41,084 bases of DNA from a virus. Lineage: Duplodnaviria; Heunggongvirae; Uroviricota; Caudoviricetes. The notes below the pieces were generated by a model. The model was not told the DNA's origin. It did not search any database and saw only the letters and a program-made list of their open reading frames with translations. Below, piece after piece: positions 1,459 to 15,047 of this stretch; positions within the stretch are counted from its first letter, which is position 1, and every line of letters begins with the position of its first letter. The position numbers and the translations under genes were made by a program. The stretch covers positions 1 to 41,084 of IMG/VR virus record IMGVR_UViG_2667527588_000007; one strand, given 5' to 3'.

Positions 1459-2622
1459 TTACACATCATTAGTACCTTCCTTATTTTTTGACTGGGACAA
1501 ATTTGGGACCGATGGGTTCAGGATCGAGTCTATTTGCCGTGCGTGCTCGGTAAGGTGATTAGGTGCAAGGTGAGCATATCGACGAACCATTTCGATAGAC
1601 TCCCAGCCTCCCATTTCCTGTAACACTGACAACGGGACTCCGGCTTGAACCAGCCAACTTGCCCAGGTGTGTCTCAGGTCGTGAAATCTGAAATCATCAA
1701 TACCAGCCCGTCTCAGCGCCGCTTTCCAGGCTGTGTTTGCGTCATACCGCATCTTCCTTACTGTTGGCGCTTTCGTTCCGTCTGGTTTGGTACAGCTTTC
1801 CTTGTACACAAATACCCAACGGTGATGATTCCCGATTTGTTTTTTCAAAACGCGACATGCAGTATCATTCAGCGCAACGCCGATTGCGCGGTTTGATTTA
1901 CTCTCTTCCGGGTTTATCCATGCCACTCGGCGCTGCATATCTATTTGTTGCCATTCAAGGTTGATGATGTTCGAGCGTCTTAAGCCTGTTGCCAGTGCAA
2001 ATTCAACAACAGACTTTAATGGCTCCGGACATTCATCAATCAGCCTTTGTGCTTCATGGGGCTCCAGCCAGCGGATCCGTTTATTCTTTGGTTGAGGCAC
2101 TTTAATAATTGGTGCCTTATCCAGCATTTTCCATTCACGCTCTGCGGCTCTTAGTAGGGCCTTTATAAATGAAAGATGCGTAGCCTTCGTTGCAACGGAC
2201 GCTGGTTTTGGCGTGTATTCTGGAACAGGTTTCCCTTTTTTTCTGCATGCTTCTGCCCTGAGTTTCCAGTTTTCCTCATGACGCCGGTTCGTCATTTTCT
2301 GCATTGCTGAATAAATTTTTGATTCAGTAATGTCTCTTAGTTGCATTCCTGCGAAATGTTGAAGCCAGAATCCGATCCGGCTTTTGTCATCGTCCAGTGA
2401 TTTTTTATGTGCTTTCTCTTCAAGCCACCTGACACATGCTTCCTCGAACGTTATATCAGGTATTTCACCAAGTTTACTGACCCGCCATGCTTCAGCCTTT
2501 AGCTTGTCATGGAGTTCTGTCGCCTGCCTTTTGTCCTTTGTTCCAAGAGACTGTTTAAATCTTTTACCGTTCGGCAATGTGAAACTGGCGTACCATATTT
2601 CACCTCTGCGGAAGAGTGACAT
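1459..2622 (-). CDS. int: tyrosine-type phage integrase
   Basis: 387 aa; C-terminal [39 protein letters not shown] (R..H-x-x-R..Y catalytic signature); GAGGAA RBS upstream of start; adjacent to tRNA. Confidence 0.92.
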
Positions 2623-7395: not shown

Positions 7396-8088
7396 TTAAT
7401 TATGTCTCTTAAGGGTTTGCGACTGACTGATTAAGACCTTTCCAAAGACCATGAATCGGTGTTCGTTTTCGCTAGTAATTCCCCATTCACGGTAAATCTG
7501 GTTATCAGAAATCACCAGCAGTTTGTCAGGAATCATTTGAAGTCTTTTAACGTATATTTTGTCATCAAAACCAAAGACATATATACCATCACCATCAAAC
7601 TGATTGATGCTGACATCAACGAAGATGAGATCTCCTGGCTCAATGGTTGGACACATACTGTCCCCACGAACGTTGATAACTTTGATGTGATTGGCTGGTC
7701 GTCCGCCGAACATTGATACAGCATTATCAGTTCTGTATTCGATGGCATGAATCACATCAATGACATCACCGCCCTGGATAAGGCCATTTCCCGCACTGGC
7801 ACTGATATCCAGCATTTCAATACGGAACACATCCTTCACCTGCGCAACATCCTCATTGTTACTGTTTTTATATACAGTATTACTTTTGTGGGCAGAGGTA
7901 AAGAGATCAGCAATATCAACACCTAAGCTCTTGGCAATATTACTCAGTGTTTGTTCGGTAAATTGTTTTTGCTTACCCGTTTCTAAGCGCGAGATGTTCG
8001 CCGCATCTACTCCTATCGCTTCAGCGAGATCGGCGATTTTCATGTTCTTCGCTTGGCGAAGTTGTCTGACTCGGTTTCCTATGTTCAT
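7396..8088 (-). CDS. cI: CI-type prophage repressor (XRE HTH + S24 LexA-like peptidase domain)
   Basis: N-terminal HTH (RVRQLRQAKNMKIADLAEAIGVDAANISRLETG), C-terminal S24 signature (GDSMCPTIEPGDLIFVD ... KRL); divergent from cro; no SD before ATG. Confidence 0.9.
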   Translation of the reverse strand: MNIGNRVRQLRQAKNMKIADLAEAIGVDAANISRLETGKQKQFTEQTLSNIAKSLGVDIADLFTSAHKSNTVYKNSNNEDVAQVKDVFRIEMLDISASAGNGLIQGGDVIDVIHAIEYRTDNAVSMFGGRPANHIKVINVRGDSMCPTIEPGDLIFVDVSINQFDGDGIYVFGFDDKIYVKRLQMIPDKLLVISDNQIYREWGITSENEHRFMVFGKVLISQSQTLKRHN

Positions 8089-8185
8089 GCGTTTATTACA
8101 TTTCTTTATTGCGTGATAAGCAAATCAACTTGCGCAAAATAATTGCGTGAAATAACATGCATAACGCGCAATATTTGGAGGGCGT
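8089..8185. promoter_or_regulatory. OR-like operator/promoter region between cI and cro
   Basis: TTGCGTGATAAGCAA (8109-8123) matches TTGC-N7-GCAA; candidate PR -35 TTGCGC (8130-8135) and -10 TAACAT (8153-8158); GGAGGG RBS for cro. Confidence 0.55.
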
Positions 8186-8446
8186 ATGCAATCACCATTA
8201 CGAAATGTGCGTAAGGCGCATGGTTTCACTTTGCAGCATGTTGCTGCGGGTGTTCAAGTCAATCCAGCGACGTTGAGTCGTATTGAGAGGCTGGAGCAGA
8301 TTCCATCTATCGAGCTTGCAGAACGTTTAGCCAATTTTTTTAAGGGTGAAGTCAGCGAAATGCAGATTCTTTATCCGGCACGTTTTCAATCTAGCCAAAA
8401 CCAGAATGGGTTTAAACCACAGGAACAGGAGGTGAACCGTGGGTAA
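8186..8446 (+). CDS. cro: Cro-like HTH regulator
   Basis: 86 aa; HTH QHVAAGVQVNPATLSRIER; divergent from cI; strong RBS. Confidence 0.8.
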   Translation: MQSPLRNVRKAHGFTLQHVAAGVQVNPATLSRIERLEQIPSIELAERLANFFKGEVSEMQILYPARFQSSQNQNGFKPQEQEVNRG

Positions 8447-8990
8447 GCATCACTGGAAAGTAGAAAAACAGCCTGAGTGGTACGTGAAAGCTGTCAGAAA
8501 AACTATCGCAGCGTTGCCGGGGGGGTACGCTGAAGCTGCTGACTGGCTGGATGTAACAGAGAACGCATTATTTAACCGCCTTCGTGCCGATGGCGATCAG
8601 ATTTTCCCGCTGGGATGGGCAATGATTTTGCAACGTGCTGGTGGAACTCACTTCATTGCTGACGCTGTGGCGCAGTCTGCAAATGGCGTCTTTGTGTCTC
8701 TTCCTGATGTCGAGGATGTGGACAACGCCGATATCAACCAACGCCTGCTGGAGGTCATTGAACAGATCGGCAGTTATTCAAAACAGATTCGTTCAGCAAT
8801 TGAAGACGGTGTAGTGGAACCGCATGAGAAGACAGCAATTAACGACGAGCTGTACCTCTCAATTTCGAAGCTGCAGGAGCATGCAGCACTGGTCTACAAA
8901 ATTTTTTGCATTTCAGAAAGTAATGACGCCCGCGAGTGTGCAGCTCCGGGCGCCGTGGCGTGTCGTGACTGTGGAGAAACTAACGCATGA
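8439..8990 (+). CDS. hypothetical early regulatory protein
   Basis: GTG start with AGGAGG RBS; 183 aa with C-terminal Cys cluster; occupies the position after cro. Confidence 0.5.
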
Positions 8991-9325
8991 ACAGTTTAAC
9001 AACACACTACCGTCGCTCGCAACTGATTGCGCTTCCTGTACCGGGTGGAAAAGCGAAGGTGGAGTATTGCTATGCAGTAAATGTACCAGGTGGCAGGGTA
9101 ATTGTAACCCACAGCTTTGCAGAGTGGGCTGTGGGTGATTTTAACCGGCAAAAGGAGACAGTCCTTTGCGACAAGTTAACCGCTGGTTCAAAGATCACTA
9201 CGGAGTACCCGTCAGAGTCATTCGTTGGGAGCCGGAAACACAACGGGTTATCTACCTCCGTGAAGGCTATGAGCATGAGTGCTTCAGCCCGCTCGAACAG
9301 TTTCGTCGTAAATTCAGGGAAATAG
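8987..9325 (+). CDS. hypothetical protein (frame ambiguity with overlapping TTG-start small ORF 9166-9345)
   Basis: ATGA-coupled start at 8987; C-terminal half is Ser-rich and low complexity, whereas an alternative frame from 9166 (TTG after AAAGGAGA) encodes a more protein-like 59-aa product. Confidence 0.35.
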
Positions 9326-9334
9326 AGGTCGGTC

Positions 9335-10276
9335 ATGAGCACTAAATTAACCGGCTATGTATGGGATGGTTGCGCAGCGTCAGGCATGAAATTATCCAGC
9401 GTGGCAATTATGGCCCGCCTGGCTGATTTCAGTAATGACGAAGGTGTGTGCTGGCCATCAATTGAAACCATTGCCCGTCAGATTGGCGCGGGGATGAGTA
9501 CCGTCAGGACGGCTATCGCACGGCTGGAAGCAGAAGGCTGGTTAACGCGTAAGGCGCGTCGCCAGGGTAACCGCAATGCGTCGAATGTTTATCAGCTTAA
9601 CGTTGCGAAGCTTCAGGCAGCGGCATTTTCTCAACTGTCAGATTCTGACCCGTCAAAATCTGACGCATCAAAATCTGACCCGTCAAAATTTGATGCGTCG
9701 AAATCTGGCAAAAAAGCGGGTTTTCACCCGTCAGAATCTGGCGGGGATCCGTCAGTAAAATCAAAACATGATCCGTCAGATAAAAAACCTTCTCGTCCGG
9801 ACGCTTCGCAACCGGACACGCAGACGGATGAACAGGATTTTTTAACTCGCCATCCTGATGCGGTTGTATTCAGCCCTAAAAAGCGCCAGTGGGGAACGCA
9901 GGATGATTTGACCTGCGCACAGTGGCTCTGGAAAAAAATCATCGCCCTGTACGAGCAAGCCGCCGAATGTGACGGCGAGGTGGTTCGTCCCAAAGAACCG
10001 AACTGGACAGCCTGGGCAAACGAAATTCGCCTAATGTGTGTGCAGGATGGTCGTACTCACAAACAAATCTGCGAGATGTACAGCCGCGTCAGCCGCGATC
10101 CGTTCTGGTGCCGTAACGTGCTCAGCCCGTCGAAGCTGCGGGAAAAATGGGATGAGCTTTCCCTGCGCTTATCACCGTCCGTCAGCACGTACACCGAAAA
10201 ACGCGAAGACCCGTACTTCAAATCCAGTTACGACAACGTGGACTACAGCCAGATCCCGGCAGGATTCAGGGGGTGA
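9335..10276 (+). CDS. replication initiation protein (lambda O-like, HTH N-terminal domain, internal ori iterons)
   Basis: N-terminal winged-helix (IETIARQIGAGMSTVRTAIARLEAEGWL); 15-bp tandem iterons inside the coding sequence encoding an SD-x-SK peptide repeat. Confidence 0.8.
   Translation: MSTKLTGYVWDGCAASGMKLSSVAIMARLADFSNDEGVCWPSIETIARQIGAGMSTVRTAIARLEAEGWLTRKARRQGNRNASNVYQLNVAKLQAAAFSQLSDSDPSKSDASKSDPSKFDASKSGKKAGFHPSESGGDPSVKSKHDPSDKKPSRPDASQPDTQTDEQDFLTRHPDAVVFSPKKRQWGTQDDLTCAQWLWKKIIALYEQAAECDGEVVRPKEPNWTAWANEIRLMCVQDGRTHKQICEMYSRVSRDPFWCRNVLSPSKLREKWDELSLRLSPSVSTYTEKREDPYFKSSYDNVDYSQIPAGFRG
9644..9703. repeat. origin iterons: four tandem 15-bp repeats (TCTGACCCGTCAAAA-like) with degenerate copies to about 9790 followed by an A/T-rich tract
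   Basis: Direct repeats visible at 9644-9658, 9659-9673, 9674-9688, 9689-9703; A/T-rich 9757-9790. Confidence 0.7.
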
Positions 10277-10278
10277 TC

Positions 10279-10767
10279 ATGAGTCTTTTGAATGAAGTTC
10301 AGAAATTCATTGAAGCCCATCCGGGGTGTACTTCCGGAGACATTGCGGATGCTTTTGCAGGTTACTCACGGCAGCGCGTTCTGCAGTCAGCAAGCAAGTT
10401 ACGTCAGAGTGGGCGTGTGGCTCACCGTTGTGAAGGAGATACACGCAGACATTTCCCACGCCTGACTGAGAGAGCGCAGAAGCCGGAACCACAACCAGTT
10501 CGTGAAACCAGACCTGTGCGCAATTTCTATGTCGGCACTAACGATCCCCGGGTGATTTTGTGCCTGACCCGCCAGGCGGAAGAACTGGAGTCCAGGGGCT
10601 TATACCGTCGTGCTGCAACGGTGTGGATGGCGGCATTCCGTGAAAGCCACTCCCAGCCAGAACGAAACAATTTTCTGGCGCGTCGTGAGCGGTGCTTACG
10701 GAAAAGCAGCAAGCGCGCTGTATCGAGTGATGAGTGGTATCTGTCAGGGAATTACGTGGGGGCGTAA
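10279..10767 (+). CDS. hypothetical protein (C-terminal region weakly PerC-like)
   Basis: ATG at 10279 after AGGGGG; 162 aa; C-terminal W/R-rich segment recalls PerC-family activators (low confidence). Confidence 0.45.
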   Translation: MSLLNEVQKFIEAHPGCTSGDIADAFAGYSRQRVLQSASKLRQSGRVAHRCEGDTRRHFPRLTERAQKPEPQPVRETRPVRNFYVGTNDPRVILCLTRQAEELESRGLYRRAATVWMAAFRESHSQPERNNFLARRERCLRKSSKRAVSSDEWYLSGNYVGA

Positions 10768-11093
10768 TGACGACGTTAACTCAATGCCAGCAGCAGGTGC
10801 TGGATATGCTGATTTCTTACCAGAAAGAGCGTGGCTTTCCGCCAACCAATCAGGAGGTGGCAACCATGCTGGGATACCGTTCAGTGAATGCAGCGGTAGA
10901 GCATCTTCGTGCACTGGAGAAAAAAGGCGTCATCACGATAAAGCGTGGCGTGGCCCGGGGGATAACGCTTCATACCGCGGTGAAGGACGACGACAGCGAG
11001 GCGGTCGGGATTATCCGCGCACTGCTTGCCGGTGAGGAAAACGCCAGGCTGCGTGCAGCCCACTGGTTACATGAGAGAGGCCTGAAAGTATGA
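10767..11093 (+). CDS. LexA N-terminal DNA-binding-domain homolog (no peptidase domain)
   Basis: TLTQCQQQVLDMLISYQKERGFPPTNQEVATMLGYRSVNAAVEHLRALEKKGVITIKRGVARGITL aligns by eye with LexA residues about 5-70; TAATG coupling to upstream gene. Confidence 0.7.
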   Translation: MTTLTQCQQQVLDMLISYQKERGFPPTNQEVATMLGYRSVNAAVEHLRALEKKGVITIKRGVARGITLHTAVKDDDSEAVGIIRALLAGEENARLRAAHWLHERGLKV

Positions 11094-11479
11094 AGCTGAT
11101 CTTGCCTTTCCCGCCCAGCGTGAACACGTACTGGCGACACCCCAACAAAGGGGCGTTTGCTGGTAAGAGTCTGATAAGCGCGGCGGGGCGAAAATTCCAG
11201 AGCGCGGCGTGCGCAGCAATAGTTGAGCAGTTACGTCGTCTGCCGAAACCAACGTCGGCACCTGCTTCAGTGGAGATCGTGTTGTTTCCTCCGGATAACC
11301 GGATCCGCGATCTGGACAACTATAACAAGGCGCTGTTTGACGCCCTGACCCACGCGGGTGTGTGGGAAGACGACAGTCAGGTGAAAAGAATGCTGGTGGA
11401 GTGGGGACCGGTTATCCCGGAAGGGAAGGTCGAGATCACTATCAGTAAGTACGAGAAAACGGCGGGTGCAGCCGCCTGA
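11090..11479 (+). CDS. rusA: Holliday junction resolvase RusA
   Basis: 129 aa; LPFPPSVNTYWRH ... RDLDNYNKALFDALTHAGVWEDDSQV matches RusA catalytic Asp cluster; GAGAGAGG RBS. Confidence 0.85.
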   Translation: MKLILPFPPSVNTYWRHPNKGAFAGKSLISAAGRKFQSAACAAIVEQLRRLPKPTSAPASVEIVLFPPDNRIRDLDNYNKALFDALTHAGVWEDDSQVKRMLVEWGPVIPEGKVEITISKYEKTAGAAA

Positions 11480-11498
11480 TCAAGAGGAGAAACGAAGT

Positions 11499-12296
11499 AT
11501 GAATAATCTGATGGTCATTGATGGTATTGAAGTTCGTCGTGATACTTATGGGCGTTACAGCCTGAACGATCTGCACAGGGCTGCCGGTTCTCTGGATAAG
11601 CATAAGCCTGCATTCTGGCTCCGCAATGAGCAAACTGAACGTTTAATAAGCGAGTTGCAGATTTGCAACTCGGTCAATATAGAGCCAGTTAACGTTATTC
11701 GTGGCGGAAATAACCAGGGGACGTATGTCTGCAAAGAACTGGTGTATGCCTATGCAATGTGGATCAGCCCGTCATTCCATCTGAAGGTGATCCGTACTTT
11801 CGACATGGTAACCAGCGCACCGGAAAAATTATCCGGACAGGCTGCTGACAAGATGCAGGCTGGTGTGATTCTGCTGGACTTTATGCGCCGGGAATTAAAC
11901 CTGTCTAACTCTTCAGTGCTTGGTGCCTGTCAGAAGCTTCAGGAGGCTGTTGGCTTACCGAATCTGGCACCGCGCTATGCCATTGATGCTCCTGCTGATG
12001 CACACGATGGCTCAAGTCGCCCGACACTGTCACTGAGTGCATTGCTGAAACAGTATGGTATCCGCCTGACGGCTAATCAGGCATATCACCAGATGGCGAA
12101 GCTGGGGATCGTCGAACAGCGCGAACGATACAGCCGTACCGCGATTAACAACATTAAAAAATTCTGGTCGCTGACGGCGAAAGGCTGCATGTTCGGCAAG
12201 AACATCACCAGTCCCGCAAATCCGCGCGAGACGCAGCCGCATTTCTTCGAATCCCGGTTCCCTGAGCTGTTAAAGCTGCTCGATACCGTTCATTGA
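11499..12296 (+). CDS. KilA-N domain protein (antirepressor-like)
   Basis: Start MNNLMVIDGIEVRRDTYGRYSLNDLHRAAG after AGAGGAGA RBS; KilA-N-type N-terminal domain. Confidence 0.65.
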   Translation: MNNLMVIDGIEVRRDTYGRYSLNDLHRAAGSLDKHKPAFWLRNEQTERLISELQICNSVNIEPVNVIRGGNNQGTYVCKELVYAYAMWISPSFHLKVIRTFDMVTSAPEKLSGQAADKMQAGVILLDFMRRELNLSNSSVLGACQKLQEAVGLPNLAPRYAIDAPADAHDGSSRPTLSLSALLKQYGIRLTANQAYHQMAKLGIVEQRERYSRTAINNIKKFWSLTAKGCMFGKNITSPANPRETQPHFFESRFPELLKLLDTVH

Positions 12297-12297
12297 G

Positions 12298-13293
12298 GTG
12301 ACCGTGAGAGCACTACTGACCCCTGAAATTGCCCCGCGTATGGGGATCGTATTGTTCAGACCAGGTTCAGAGCTGATGCCCCTGTTTATGCAGGGGCGTG
12401 TCCTGCTGGAGCCTGAGCCGGAACGTTATTCATCTTTCCCCAGTGGTGCCGTTCCGGCGGCATCACAACCGCTGGCGGATGATCCTGCCGTTCGGGCCGT
12501 GTTCCGTAATGAGGCAGTGATCCGTCGTGCTGGTGGCGTGGAATGTCTTGAAAGCTGGTTACTTCGTGAAAAAGGCTGCCAGTGGCCTCATTCCGACTGG
12601 CACAGCGAGAACATGACCACAATGCGACACGCGCCGGGCGCGATCCGTCTGTGCTGGCACTGCGATAACCAGCTGCGCGATCAGTTCACGGAACGGCTGG
12701 AATCAATGGCAACGGATAACTGTGCCCGCTGGGTGTTGTCTGTTGTGCGTCGGGATCTCGGTTTTGATGACAGTCACGTTGTGACAATGCCGGAACTGTG
12801 CTGGTGGCTGGTTCGTAATGATCTGGCGGATGCCTTACCGGAAAGCGCAGCCCGTAAGGCACTGAGATTACCGAAGCCTGTTGTGCCGTCTGTCACCCGG
12901 GAAAGTGACCTTGTGCCTTCGGTTCCAGCCACCAGCATCATGCAGGATAAAGCGAAAAAGGTGCTGGCGCTGAAAGTGGAGCCGGAGTCGCCGGAGTCTT
13001 TTATGTTACGCCCCAAACGTCGCCGCTGGGTTAATGAAAAGTACACGCGCTGGGTTAAGACACAGCCGTGTGCATGTTGTGGAAAGCCTGCTGATGATCC
13101 CCACCACCTGATAGGCCACGGTCAGGGTGGAATGGGTACAAAAGCGCATGACCTTTTTGTGTTGCCTTTGTGCAGAAAGCATCACGACGAGCTGCATGCG
13201 GATACCGTGGCATTTGAAGAGAAGTATGGTTCCCAGCTGGAGCTGATATTTCGTTTTATCGATCGTGCGCTGGCAATAGGCGTACTGGCGTAA
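12298..13293 (+). CDS. DUF968-family phage protein (C-terminal Cys/His cluster)
   Basis: C-terminal CACCGKPADDPHHLIGHGQGGMGTKAHDLFVLPLCRKHHDELH, recalled as DUF968 (YdfU-type prophage proteins); GTG start after GAGGTG. Confidence 0.6.
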   Translation: MTVRALLTPEIAPRMGIVLFRPGSELMPLFMQGRVLLEPEPERYSSFPSGAVPAASQPLADDPAVRAVFRNEAVIRRAGGVECLESWLLREKGCQWPHSDWHSENMTTMRHAPGAIRLCWHCDNQLRDQFTERLESMATDNCARWVLSVVRRDLGFDDSHVVTMPELCWWLVRNDLADALPESAARKALRLPKPVVPSVTRESDLVPSVPATSIMQDKAKKVLALKVEPESPESFMLRPKRRRWVNEKYTRWVKTQPCACCGKPADDPHHLIGHGQGGMGTKAHDLFVLPLCRKHHDELHADTVAFEEKYGSQLELIFRFIDRALAIGVLA

Positions 13294-13306
13294 GTGGAGA
13301 ACGAGC

Positions 13307-14059
13307 ATGAACCTTGAAGCCTTACCGAAATATTACTCCCCGAAATCTCCAAAACTGAGCGATGACGCCCCGGCGACAGGCTCTGGTGGTTTAACGATTA
13401 CGGATGTGATGGCTGCGCAGGGGATGGTGCAGTCGAAAGCACCGCTTGGGTTTGCCTTATTCCTGGCAAAAGTTGGTGTTCAGGATCCTCAGTTTGCGAT
13501 TGAAGGTCTGCTCAATTACGCGATGGCACTGGATAACCCGACATTGAATAAATTGAGTGAAGAAACCCGGCTACAGATCATTCCTTACCTTGTGAATTTT
13601 GCCTTTGCTGATTATTCCAGGTCTGCGGCAAGTAAGGCTCGCTGTGAGCATTGTGCTGGTACTGGATTTCATAATGTATTGCGCGAAGTGGTGAAACACT
13701 CCAGAAGCGGGGAGTCTGTTATCAAGGAAGAGTGGGTGAAGGAACTATGTCAGCATTGTCATGGTAAGGGAGAAGTCAGCACAGCGTGCAGAGGGTGTAA
13801 GGGTAAAGGTATTGTCCTGGATGAAAAAAGAACCCGGCTTCATGGTACGCCTGTTTATAAGATTTGTGGGCGTTGCAATGGAAAACGGTTTAGTCGTTTA
13901 CCAACCACACTGGCGCGGCATCATGTCCAGAAACTGGTACCAGACCTGACGGATTATCAGTGGTACAAAGGATATGCAGATGTCATTGATAAACTGGTTA
14001 CAAAGTGCTGGCAGGAGGAATCTTACGCTGAAGCACAATTGAGAAAGGTGACAAGATAA
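13307..14059 (+). CDS. Q: late-gene antitermination protein Q
   Basis: 250 aa with CxxC...CxxC zinc-finger region (CEHCAGTG ... CQHCHGKG ... CRGCKGKG); positioned immediately upstream of late promoter and lysis genes. Confidence 0.75.
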   Translation: MNLEALPKYYSPKSPKLSDDAPATGSGGLTITDVMAAQGMVQSKAPLGFALFLAKVGVQDPQFAIEGLLNYAMALDNPTLNKLSEETRLQIIPYLVNFAFADYSRSAASKARCEHCAGTGFHNVLREVVKHSRSGESVIKEEWVKELCQHCHGKGEVSTACRGCKGKGIVLDEKRTRLHGTPVYKICGRCNGKRFSRLPTTLARHHVQKLVPDLTDYQWYKGYADVIDKLVTKCWQEESYAEAQLRKVTR

Positions 14060-14090
14060 GTGATCTTCGCCGAAAATGGTGACATCATGC

Positions 14091-14119
14091 TTGCAATTTT
14101 CAAAAAACATGGATAAGAT
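14091..14119 (+). promoter_or_regulatory. candidate late promoter (PR'-like)
   Basis: TTGCAA, 17-nt spacer, TAAGAT directly downstream of Q. Confidence 0.4.
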
Positions 14120-14167
14120 TTTCTCAACGATGGGCTTTATGTATCTGCTGTTGATAACCTTCAAGAA

Positions 14168-14190
14168 CTCGCCATTGAGCGGGTTTTTTA
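14168..14190 (+). terminator. candidate tR'-like terminator
   Basis: Short hairpin CTCGCC-ATTGA-GCGGG followed by TTTTTTATT. Confidence 0.35.
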
Positions 14191-14261
14191 TTGTGTAAAA
14201 ACAGAATGACGGTATTAATTAGTAATATAATTATTCGACCATACAACTAGGGGTCGAAAAA

Positions 14262-15047
14262 ATGTATGTTTTTGAGTTAATCAAGCCAGGCAGTAATCTT
14301 AAGTTTGAAAACAGAGAGTTAGAATGGACGTTTAATAACTTATTATCCCATTTAGAAACTGCATTTTATGATGCTAATGTAGCATTAAATTTATTCGAAC
14401 AGGAAAGAACTAAGAATAACAGTAAATTCGATAATATTTCTCAGACATGGCAAGCTGATGTACAGAAACGACAAGCACTGGAAATGCTGGTTCGTAAAGA
14501 GTTTGGTTATCAACCTTATGAATATTCAGAACAGGTTTTTTCAGAGGTCGAGCTACGTCTAAAAAGAGAAAAATGGAATAACGGTGAATATCCGTTGGCT
14601 CATCAACACAGATTGATCTTCTTACATGCAAAATCATTTCTCTACGCTTTGGATGCTATTGATAAATTTTTAAAGGTAATTTCAAAAGAAAATGGCGCGC
14701 CAGAGAACATTAAAAAATTGCATGAACAGCTTTCTAAAGACTTTCCGGATTTAAGAAAGGTAAGGAATTCAGCTCAACACATGGAAGACAGAGTTCGTGG
14801 GCTTGGTGCAGAGAAAGAACCAAAGCCAATAAAACTCAAACCTGTAAATAATATTCATGTTGTTGCACCTCAGGGGGCATTGATGTTGAATAACTTATTC
14901 GGAACTAAATTTGGGTGCACTATGGCTGATGGCTATTATGGTGAAGTAGATATTTCGACAGAGTCTTTGGCAAAGTTGCAAAATTTAATCCAAAAAGTTT
15001 TTAATTCCTTCAGTTGGGAAGGACCAAAGCAACACCTTCCCCGATAA
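14262..15047 (+). CDS. hypothetical protein with HEPN-like RNxxxH motif (candidate abortive-infection/defence moron)
   Basis: 261 aa, AT-rich, all-helical composition; motif RNSAQH fits HEPN R-x4-H; own TATAAT -10 (14226-14231) and own terminator (15065-15097); located between Q and holin. Confidence 0.6.
   Translation: MYVFELIKPGSNLKFENRELEWTFNNLLSHLETAFYDANVALNLFEQERTKNNSKFDNISQTWQADVQKRQALEMLVRKEFGYQPYEYSEQVFSEVELRLKREKWNNGEYPLAHQHRLIFLHAKSFLYALDAIDKFLKVISKENGAPENIKKLHEQLSKDFPDLRKVRNSAQHMEDRVRGLGAEKEPKPIKLKPVNNIHVVAPQGALMLNNLFGTKFGCTMADGYYGEVDISTESLAKLQNLIQKVFNSFSWEGPKQHLPR

Follow-up and report, generated by a model that had tools for sequence, protein, structure and literature searches.

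The SOS response governs prophage induction, Shiga-toxin release, mutagenesis and antibiotic tolerance. In LexA the C-terminal domain provides dimerisation, self-cleavage and the interface with activated RecA (RecA*) (PMC3159453), and the fragments of cleaved LexA are removed by ClpXP and Lon (PMC3159453; bioRxiv 2020.07.14.201889). Phage-encoded LexA DNA-binding domains without a protease are already a known kind of protein, the characterised case being GIL01 gp6, a truncated LexA homologue that binds GaCACAnnTGTGaC and activates P3 (PMC6182141). The present analysis concerns a new and uncharacterised member of this kind, with a LexA-like head and a tail of its own. It is the 108-aa LexA-N-terminal-domain product of the open reading frame (ORF) 10767-11093 (+) of the IMG/VR virus record IMGVR_UViG_2667527588_000007, labelled LexN here. 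The whole stretch of 41,084 nucleotides that was analysed is referred to as the window and is a lambdoid-type, SfII-like prophage. LexN is phage-borne and lies between the cI, cro, cII and O-like genes on one side and Q on the other.

GIL01/Bam35 gp6 and LexN share a phage LexA DNA-binding domain without protease, and gp6 has a LexA-repressed promoter ahead of it, as have the LexN relatives of Klebsiella and Enterobacter. In contrast to LexN, gp6 has 66 aa, no tail and the recognition helix VSHKTAHRYLMQL, in which the essential K38 occupies the position that aligns with Asn41 of LexN, as in LexA. The gp6 phages are Tectiviridae of Bacillus, whereas the LexN phages are lambdoid prophages of Enterobacteriaceae, and BLASTP of LexN against gp6 returned no alignment. 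Because the helix of gp6 is rebuilt, gp6 is tail-less and BLASTP similarity is lacking, LexN is a truncation independent of gp6, not its orthologue, and remains much nearer to LexA in its reading surface.

The LexA 1-84 fragment and the LexA(Ind-) mutants resemble LexN in that a LexA DNA-binding head is no longer inactivated by RecA*. Removal of the fragment matters since it can still repress, as is reported by Neher et al. (2003, Genes Dev). LexN differs from the fragment in being a separate gene with another C-terminus, to which the exposed degradation signal need not apply, and in having a conserved tail that, by analogy, may restore dimerisation. Should LexN function as proposed below, it would share with DinI and GIL01 gp7 the property of a mobile-element factor that damps or reshapes SOS. 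DinI acts on RecA, and gp7 on the LexA protein (PMC4551915), neither of them occupying operators itself. Literature searches, of incomplete coverage, found no characterised enterobacterial LexA-head protein.

A LexA-type head without the peptidase domain

LexN matched the Pfam family LexA_DNA_bind (PF01726) with E=2.9e-19 and 69 bits, against a cutoff of 23.7, its residues 1-65 covering profile positions 1-65 of 65. The LexA N-terminal domain in the PDB (1lea) was matched with E=6.5e-16 over residues 2-70 without gaps. A single-sequence AlphaFold2 (AF2) run gave a poor model (predicted local distance difference test, pLDDT, 58.8) and was replaced by a run on a 24-sequence alignment (pLDDT 81.9). 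The resulting model has three helices, at residues 6-22, 28-35 and 40-52, and a two-strand wing at residues 56-58 and 66-68. Superposed with Foldseek, it lies on 1lea with a root mean square deviation (rmsd) of 1.3 A over 68 residues and on DNA-bound LexA (3jso) with 1.0 A at 51% identity, the identity over residues 2-70 being about 51%. The original prediction, a LexA DNA-binding domain without peptidase domain to be checked by structure prediction, superposition and profile search, is borne out by these matches, the profile search supporting the alignment with LexA over residues 1-65.

In the Pfam search LexN gave no match to Peptidase_S24 (PF00717), and the protein ends at residue 108. LexN lacks Ser119/Lys156 and the dimer interface of LexA, and it scored 70.5 bits with the NCBIfam lexA equivalog TIGR00498, below the cutoff of 110.95. 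As it is without the S24 domain and without the conserved cleavage site and scores below this cutoff, LexN is not LexA proper. The PHROG profile phrog_362, 'transcriptional repressor', was matched from end to end (E=1.6e-59, residues 1-108 against profile positions 1-106 of 106). Judged by its profile matches, LexN is a bona fide member of both PF01726 and PHROG 362 and the full-length prototype of the latter.

The similarity to LexA had at first been thought to extend along the whole protein and to stop before the cleavage site and the S24 domain. It holds for residues 1-70, while residues 71-108 form a family-specific two-helix tail. The S24 domain is indeed absent, but the HMMER pairwise alignment runs through the hinge and sets A88-G89 of LexN opposite A84-G85 of LexA, the scissile bond. 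As a cleavage, pseudo-substrate or trans-cleavage site A88-G89 was rejected, the Ala-Gly pair not being conserved in the family.

The DNA-reading surface and the tail

The residues with which LexA contacts DNA, S39, N41, A42, E44 and E45, are all in helix III (PMC3091678). Four of the five, S39, N41, A42 and E45, are kept in LexN together with the wing residues R64-G65-I66, whereas E44 is replaced by V44; the recognition helix is RSVNAAVEHLRAL in LexN and RSPNAAEEHLKAL in LexA. In the alignment of 24 family members no variation occurs at S39, N41 and R64-G65-I66; A42 and E45 are shared by LexN and most other members. Several lineages have SSPNAAAEHLKAL as recognition helix, where, over LexA residues 39-50 (SPNAAEEHLKAL), only position 44 departs from LexA.

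Residues 71-75 are a flexible linker with pLDDT below 50 and are followed by the 38-residue tail region's two helices, at residues 76-87 and 93-103 in the AF2 model. The tail motif EAxxhhRALLAxExxARxRAxxWLxxxG is conserved in the family, A97 being invariant. The tail has no counterpart in LexA, and searches against Pfam and PDB profiles found no relative. An assignment as a HEAT or PBS-lyase-type repeat was rejected, the best hits being NIL with E=0.004 and 1b0u with E=0.66. We infer that the tail is a dimerisation module which replaces the S24 domain.

Distribution, selection and gene neighbourhood

Proteins of this type bear the NCBI name 'LexA family transcriptional regulator' and fall in clusters that hold thousands of member sequences. 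Copies 96-99% identical to LexN occur in SfII, SfIV, SfV, cdtI, mEp460 and the Stx2a and Stx2c converting phages, and the gene was found in 2233 of 5426 complete E. coli genomes (41%), with up to four copies per genome. Among 56 distinct alleles, synonymous polymorphism (pS) was 0.10 and nonsynonymous polymorphism (pN) 0.004. The pN/pS ratio of 0.04 indicates strong purifying selection, and therefore not a remnant. Diverged members, with 40-60% identity, 106-135 aa and the same tail, were found in prophages of Citrobacter, Salmonella, Hafnia, Cronobacter, Klebsiella, Enterobacter, Atlantibacter, Kosakonia and Raoultella, so that together with Escherichia the family extends over about ten enterobacterial genera. 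On these alignments LexN belongs to an enterobacterial prophage family with winged helix and conserved tail, as delimited in this analysis. A scan of genome contigs with the family alignment, using one N-terminal pattern, returned mostly genuine lexA genes, and only L084-L086 and L135 were relevant.

The gene neighbourhood was compared in 80 IMG/VR loci (L001-L080) with a LexN at least 98% identical to that of the window, called E. coli-type here. RusA was present in 78/78, DUF968 in 67/67 and PerC in 72/78 of these loci. A cI of the window type was found in 19/69 only, 44/69 having no detectable cI homologue, and a Q of the window type in 20/63 only. In the Cronobacter, Atlantibacter and Klebsiella branches the LexN homologue is likewise located in the early or nin-like region, by RusA and/or DUF968. 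LexN is thus inherited without regard to the type of immunity or Q module, which favours a target that every host has, such as SOS boxes. Had LexN been dedicated to an operator of one phage type, the two should vary together. The target may also lie inside the co-inherited block.

Within the window LexN is closely packed and translationally coupled. Its ATG overlaps the PerC stop (TAATG at 10765-10769), and at the other end its stop codon and the RusA start share ATGA (11090-11093). A longer, GTG-started form of the ORF with start 10734 is also listed, but homologues begin with MTTLT and the ATG at 10767 was therefore taken as the start. The + strand promoter scan gave no promoter-like site within about 700 bp of the LexN start. 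The first strong + strand terminator-like site, a 10-pair stem with a T-run, is at 14163 after Q, with weaker matches between cro and Q at 8205, 12722, 13227, 13425 and 13451. From this gene arrangement and from the promoter and terminator scans, LexN is predicted to be a delayed-early gene of the pR operon.

In the majority of E. coli copies PerC and LexN are separated by a Dam methylase gene, which is missing from the window. In seven singleton ORFs (P0001, P0023, P0092, P0098, P0121, P0253 and P0255) parts of O-like, Dam or RusA proteins are fused to LexN in varying order and with partial domains. The interval from PerC/Dam to RusA is probably a hot spot at which such chimeras arose by recombination or deletion, unless they are artefacts of annotation. 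The idea that LexN belongs to the adjacent Dam methylase as one of its domains was rejected, as the database 'fusions' P0023, P0092, P0098 and P0001 join partial domains in either order and so look like products of deletion or recombination, and as ST64B sb44 has no LexA domain.

An SOS-box operon in the Klebsiella and Enterobacter branch

The N-extended branch of the family, found in Klebsiella, Enterobacter and relatives, comprises about 105 loci (L164-L243, L300-L326 and L333), and its LexN is 43-63% identical to those of the other branches. In nearly all of these loci LexN is preceded, at a distance of 530-700 bp, by a strong SOS box whose sequence varies by lineage. In L165, which represents most of the branch (Table 1), a promoter TTGAAC-N17-TACTGT has its -10 element within reach of the box, so that the two overlap, and the operon behind it begins with dinI (PF06183, E=5.6e-25). 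In some loci without dinI (L300-L304) the box is directly before orf96-LexN. The products of orf96 and orf67 belong to no known family, and the window has no homologues of DinI, of orf96 or of the GFPSPA ORF described below. As predicted from the promoter, LexN in this branch is an SOS gene beside a modulator of RecA, much as lexA itself stands behind its own operators. Of the contextual findings this operon is the strongest support for an SOS-related function of LexN.

The late antiterminator Q in these prophages is also predicted to lie downstream of the LexA-controlled promoter. Some loci have a further SOS-box promoter, TTGACT-N17-TACTGT, before a 109-aa ORF that starts with GFPSPAKDY. The ORF itself has no Pfam match, and its N-terminus resembles that of UmuD'/HumD.

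An SOS box inside cI

The window was scanned with an SOS-box matrix made from 20 E. coli boxes, of which several were confirmed against PMC3009722 Table 4. The only hit of at least 12 bits was TACTGTTTTTATATACAGTA, inside cI, the next-best site scoring below 12 bits. Its reverse complement matches the SOS boxes of E. coli umuD and sbmC exactly (PMC3009722 Table 4). The box sits in the linker between the helix-turn-helix (HTH) and S24 domains, otherwise the most variable part of cI, and all window-type cI genes that were compared have it in this place. It also occurs in cI homologues of 69-77% identity, from Salmonella ST64B, Klebsiella phage 1 LV-2017, E. coli phage Flotzy, Cronobacter prophages and locus L331. 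The arms of the box are kept by identical synonymous choices (ACT GTA ... xAC/xCC AGT), whereas spacer and flanks vary, which points to selection on the DNA sequence itself.

By its sequence the box is certainly a candidate site for host LexA and would be a candidate cis target for LexN. In the sense strand of cI, TTTAC[CA] is exactly 17 nt upstream of TACTGT in 5/5 diverged genes, and this is the geometry of the two Klebsiella-phage SOS promoters. An in-frame GTG with a purine-rich, Shine-Dalgarno-like sequence lies downstream of the box. Speculatively, an internal promoter derepressed in the SOS response could produce an N-terminally truncated cI with the cleavage/oligomerisation domain only, which could poison repressor oligomers. 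Alternatively, LexA bound at the box may be a roadblock to cI transcription. Literature searches, again with incomplete coverage, found no paper on an SOS box inside cI or in ST64B.

A second strong SOS-like box, TACTGTAAAAATAAACAGTG, with 22.4 bits, was seen 3.3-5 kb downstream of LexN (up to about 6.5 kb in two loci) in related phages without the window-type cI, and is absent from the window. It occurs in L030 at 14547-14566 and in about 30 other loci of L001-L080, as well as in L085, L258, L277, L299, L301-L303 and L328. In L030 it covers codons 3-9 of the gene for a 350-aa N6_N4 DNA methyltransferase (PF01555, E=1.3e-42), and its location suggests LexA control of this methylase.

Proposed function and alternatives

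We propose that LexN is a RecA-insensitive LexA surrogate that binds SOS boxes, and consider the chances of this being correct as evenly balanced. Its LexA-type winged helix would recognise CTGT-N8-ACAG SOS boxes, as the contact residues and the fold suggest, and the two-helix tail would give the dimerisation that otherwise comes from the LexA C-terminal domain. As LexN has no S24 domain, activated RecA should be unable to trigger its self-cleavage. Made as a delayed-early product of the pR operon after inactivation of cI, a timing suggested by the gene arrangement, LexN would re-occupy the host SOS operators and the cI-internal box once host LexA is destroyed. SOS functions would thereby be damped or reset during lytic growth. 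In the Klebsiella and Enterobacter branch the SOS-box promoter, often combined with the RecA modulator DinI, would make this an SOS-induced negative-feedback module. The fold, the contact residues, the absent S24 domain, the independence from other modules and the SOS-box operon of the diverged branch are all indirect evidence for occupancy of SOS boxes; the DNA specificity, dimerisation, timing and physiological consequence are inferred. Of the two roles that the original prediction had offered, non-cleavable occupancy agrees with the missing S24 domain, while a decoy role found no support, since in LexA both contact with RecA* and dimerisation belong to the C-terminal domain, which LexN lacks.

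In a more comprehensive form, which is put forward tentatively and with somewhat less than even confidence, lambdoid prophages of Enterobacteriaceae would carry a dedicated uncleavable LexA surrogate with a private dimerising tail that re-silences the host SOS regulon after the loss of LexA. The E. coli/Shigella type, including the Stx2a, Stx2c and Cdt-I phages, would be delayed-early and could sit on the cI box, and the Klebsiella/Enterobacter type would be SOS-induced together with DinI.

Several findings weigh against the surrogate function. Position 44 is never acidic across the family, and E45 is replaced by Leu or Ile in members from Klebsiella and S. Choleraesuis, so that the specificity of LexN could have shifted. 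By analogy with GIL01 gp6, homology alone does not settle the target, and an SOS-box promoter before LexN would fit the logic of gp6 equally well. The dimerising role is ascribed to a tail without recognisable relative. In the E. coli and Cronobacter branches there is no SOS box in front of LexN, and a distance of 10 kb holds none at all in about one-third of the E. coli-type loci and in most loci of the Cronobacter type, so a cis role of an SOS box for LexN is not general. In ST64B, Klebsiella phage 1 LV-2017 and Flotzy the annotations, covering about 6 kb on each side of cI and read with no tblastn run, contain no LexA-like gene, and neither ST64B sb44 nor the Klebsiella methylase has a LexA domain (PF01726); as the cI-internal box occurs in these phages too, it is primarily a candidate site for host LexA. 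Finally, the loci compared are close relatives and amount to few independent observations.

It is rather unlikely, though the main alternative, that LexN is a phage regulator of the gp6 type whose winged helix has drifted to an operator of its own, activating or repressing a phage promoter, for instance within the PerC-RusA-KilA-N-DUF968 block or ahead of Q. The precedent is close, gp6 being a LexA DNA-binding domain only, made from a LexA-repressed promoter and activating the late promoter P3, and in Klebsiella and Enterobacter LexN likewise lies between an SOS-box promoter and Q. The change at position 44 in all members, and at position 45 in some branches, also speaks for it. However, in most lineages the recognition helix of LexN is LexA-like, unlike the rebuilt helix of the tail-less and dissimilar gp6, and LexN recombines freely with respect to immunity region and Q, which one would not expect of a regulator with a phage-specific operator. 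Nor does the window show a recurrent palindrome. Neither CTGT-Nx-ACAG nor ACAG-Nx-CTGT, with x = 0-24, was in excess beyond the single SOS box, and the only short inverted repeats in 8100-14300 were the ori iterons inside the O-like gene. This absence of motifs is weak evidence against a palindrome of LexN's own.

An improbable alternative is that LexN acts mainly by protein contacts of the tail, with RecA, host LexA, cI or neighbouring recombination and replication proteins as candidate partners, and that the winged helix is a tether or vestigial, making LexN a 'decoy' or adaptor. The tail is conserved and without known function, LexN always adjoins genes of DNA metabolism (RusA, Dam, DUF968), and in one branch it is co-operonic with DinI. 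Yet the strongest conservation is in the DNA-reading surface, with S39, N41 and R64-G65-I66 invariant, the LexA surfaces for RecA* and dimerisation belong to the absent C-terminal domain, and no partner co-varies with LexN.

That LexN is a decaying, functionless remnant of a captured lexA, as its truncation relative to LexA and the chimeric Dam-LexN or O-LexN ORFs in databases might suggest, is very improbable given the low pN/pS, the coherent family with conserved tail in about ten genera, the tight translational coupling to neighbours and the presence in 41% of complete E. coli genomes.

If LexN is indeed a surrogate of LexA, SOS operators would be occupied after LexA cleavage, and the length and strength of the damage response of the lysogen would be altered. 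The firing of co-resident prophages, colicins and SOS-controlled toxins would be affected, and LexN would be a widespread factor, so far unrecognised, that helps to determine SOS dynamics, cross-induction of prophages, mutagenesis and the output of Shiga toxin. Its gene is carried by some two-fifths of the complete E. coli genomes, by converting phages for Stx2a, Stx2c and Cdt-I and by prophages of Klebsiella, Salmonella and Cronobacter. Possible pay-offs for the phage are speculative and include the silencing of SOS-controlled toxins, colicins and antirepressors of rival prophages, the limitation of RecA and UmuDC, and the prevention of cI re-synthesis. Such a function would be only moderately surprising, as it is the most obvious one for this annotated family.

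The early-right operon of the window

The features of the window and of the related loci are collected in Table 1. The genes of the early-right operon are closely packed, and the cI DNA shares 99.4% identity with its counterpart in Shigella phage SfII.

Table 1. Coordinates of the features discussed; positions are those of the window unless another locus is named.
Feature	Positions	Strand	Remarks
Integrase	1459-2622	-	
cI-type repressor	7396-8088	-	HTH_3 + Peptidase_S24; carries SOS box
SOS box TACTGTTTTTATATACAGTA	7860-7879	.	27.0 bits; inside cI
Early-right operon	8186-14059	+	includes LexN
cro	8186-8446	+	
cII-like gene	8439-8990	+	
ORF without assignment	8987-9325	+	
O-like replication initiator	9335-10276	+	
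PerC	10273-10767	+	
LexN	10767-11093	+	ATG start, 108 aa; PF01726, phrog_362 and 1lea matches
LexA-type winged helix-turn-helix, residues 1-70	10767-10976	+	alignments, AF2 model, superposition
Linker and tail, residues 71-108	10977-11090	+	conservation and AF2 model
RusA	11090-11479	+	
KilA-N	11466-12296	+	
DUF968/HNH	12298-13293	+	
Q antiterminator	13307-14059	+	
Operon of L165	8160-11284 (L165)		dinI-orf96-LexN-orf67-DUF968-Q; represents L164-L243, L305-L326, L333
cI-internal box in relatives	L081 6468; L082 6455; L083 6446; L245 ~2812; L331		

The KilA-N protein matched PF04383 with E=2e-26 and phrog_129, 'transcriptional regulator'. With PDC-S22, a candidate-defence model of PADLOC, it matched weakly (E=4.7e-6) and over residues 79-115 only, which probably reflects just the KilA-N core that both have; the PADLOC scan gave no meaningful match to a defence system. 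Tandem and inverted GTCAnAATCTGAC-type repeats were seen at 9637-9699 inside the O-like gene, where its product has the repetitive stretch PSKSDASKSD; presumably they represent the ori iterons.

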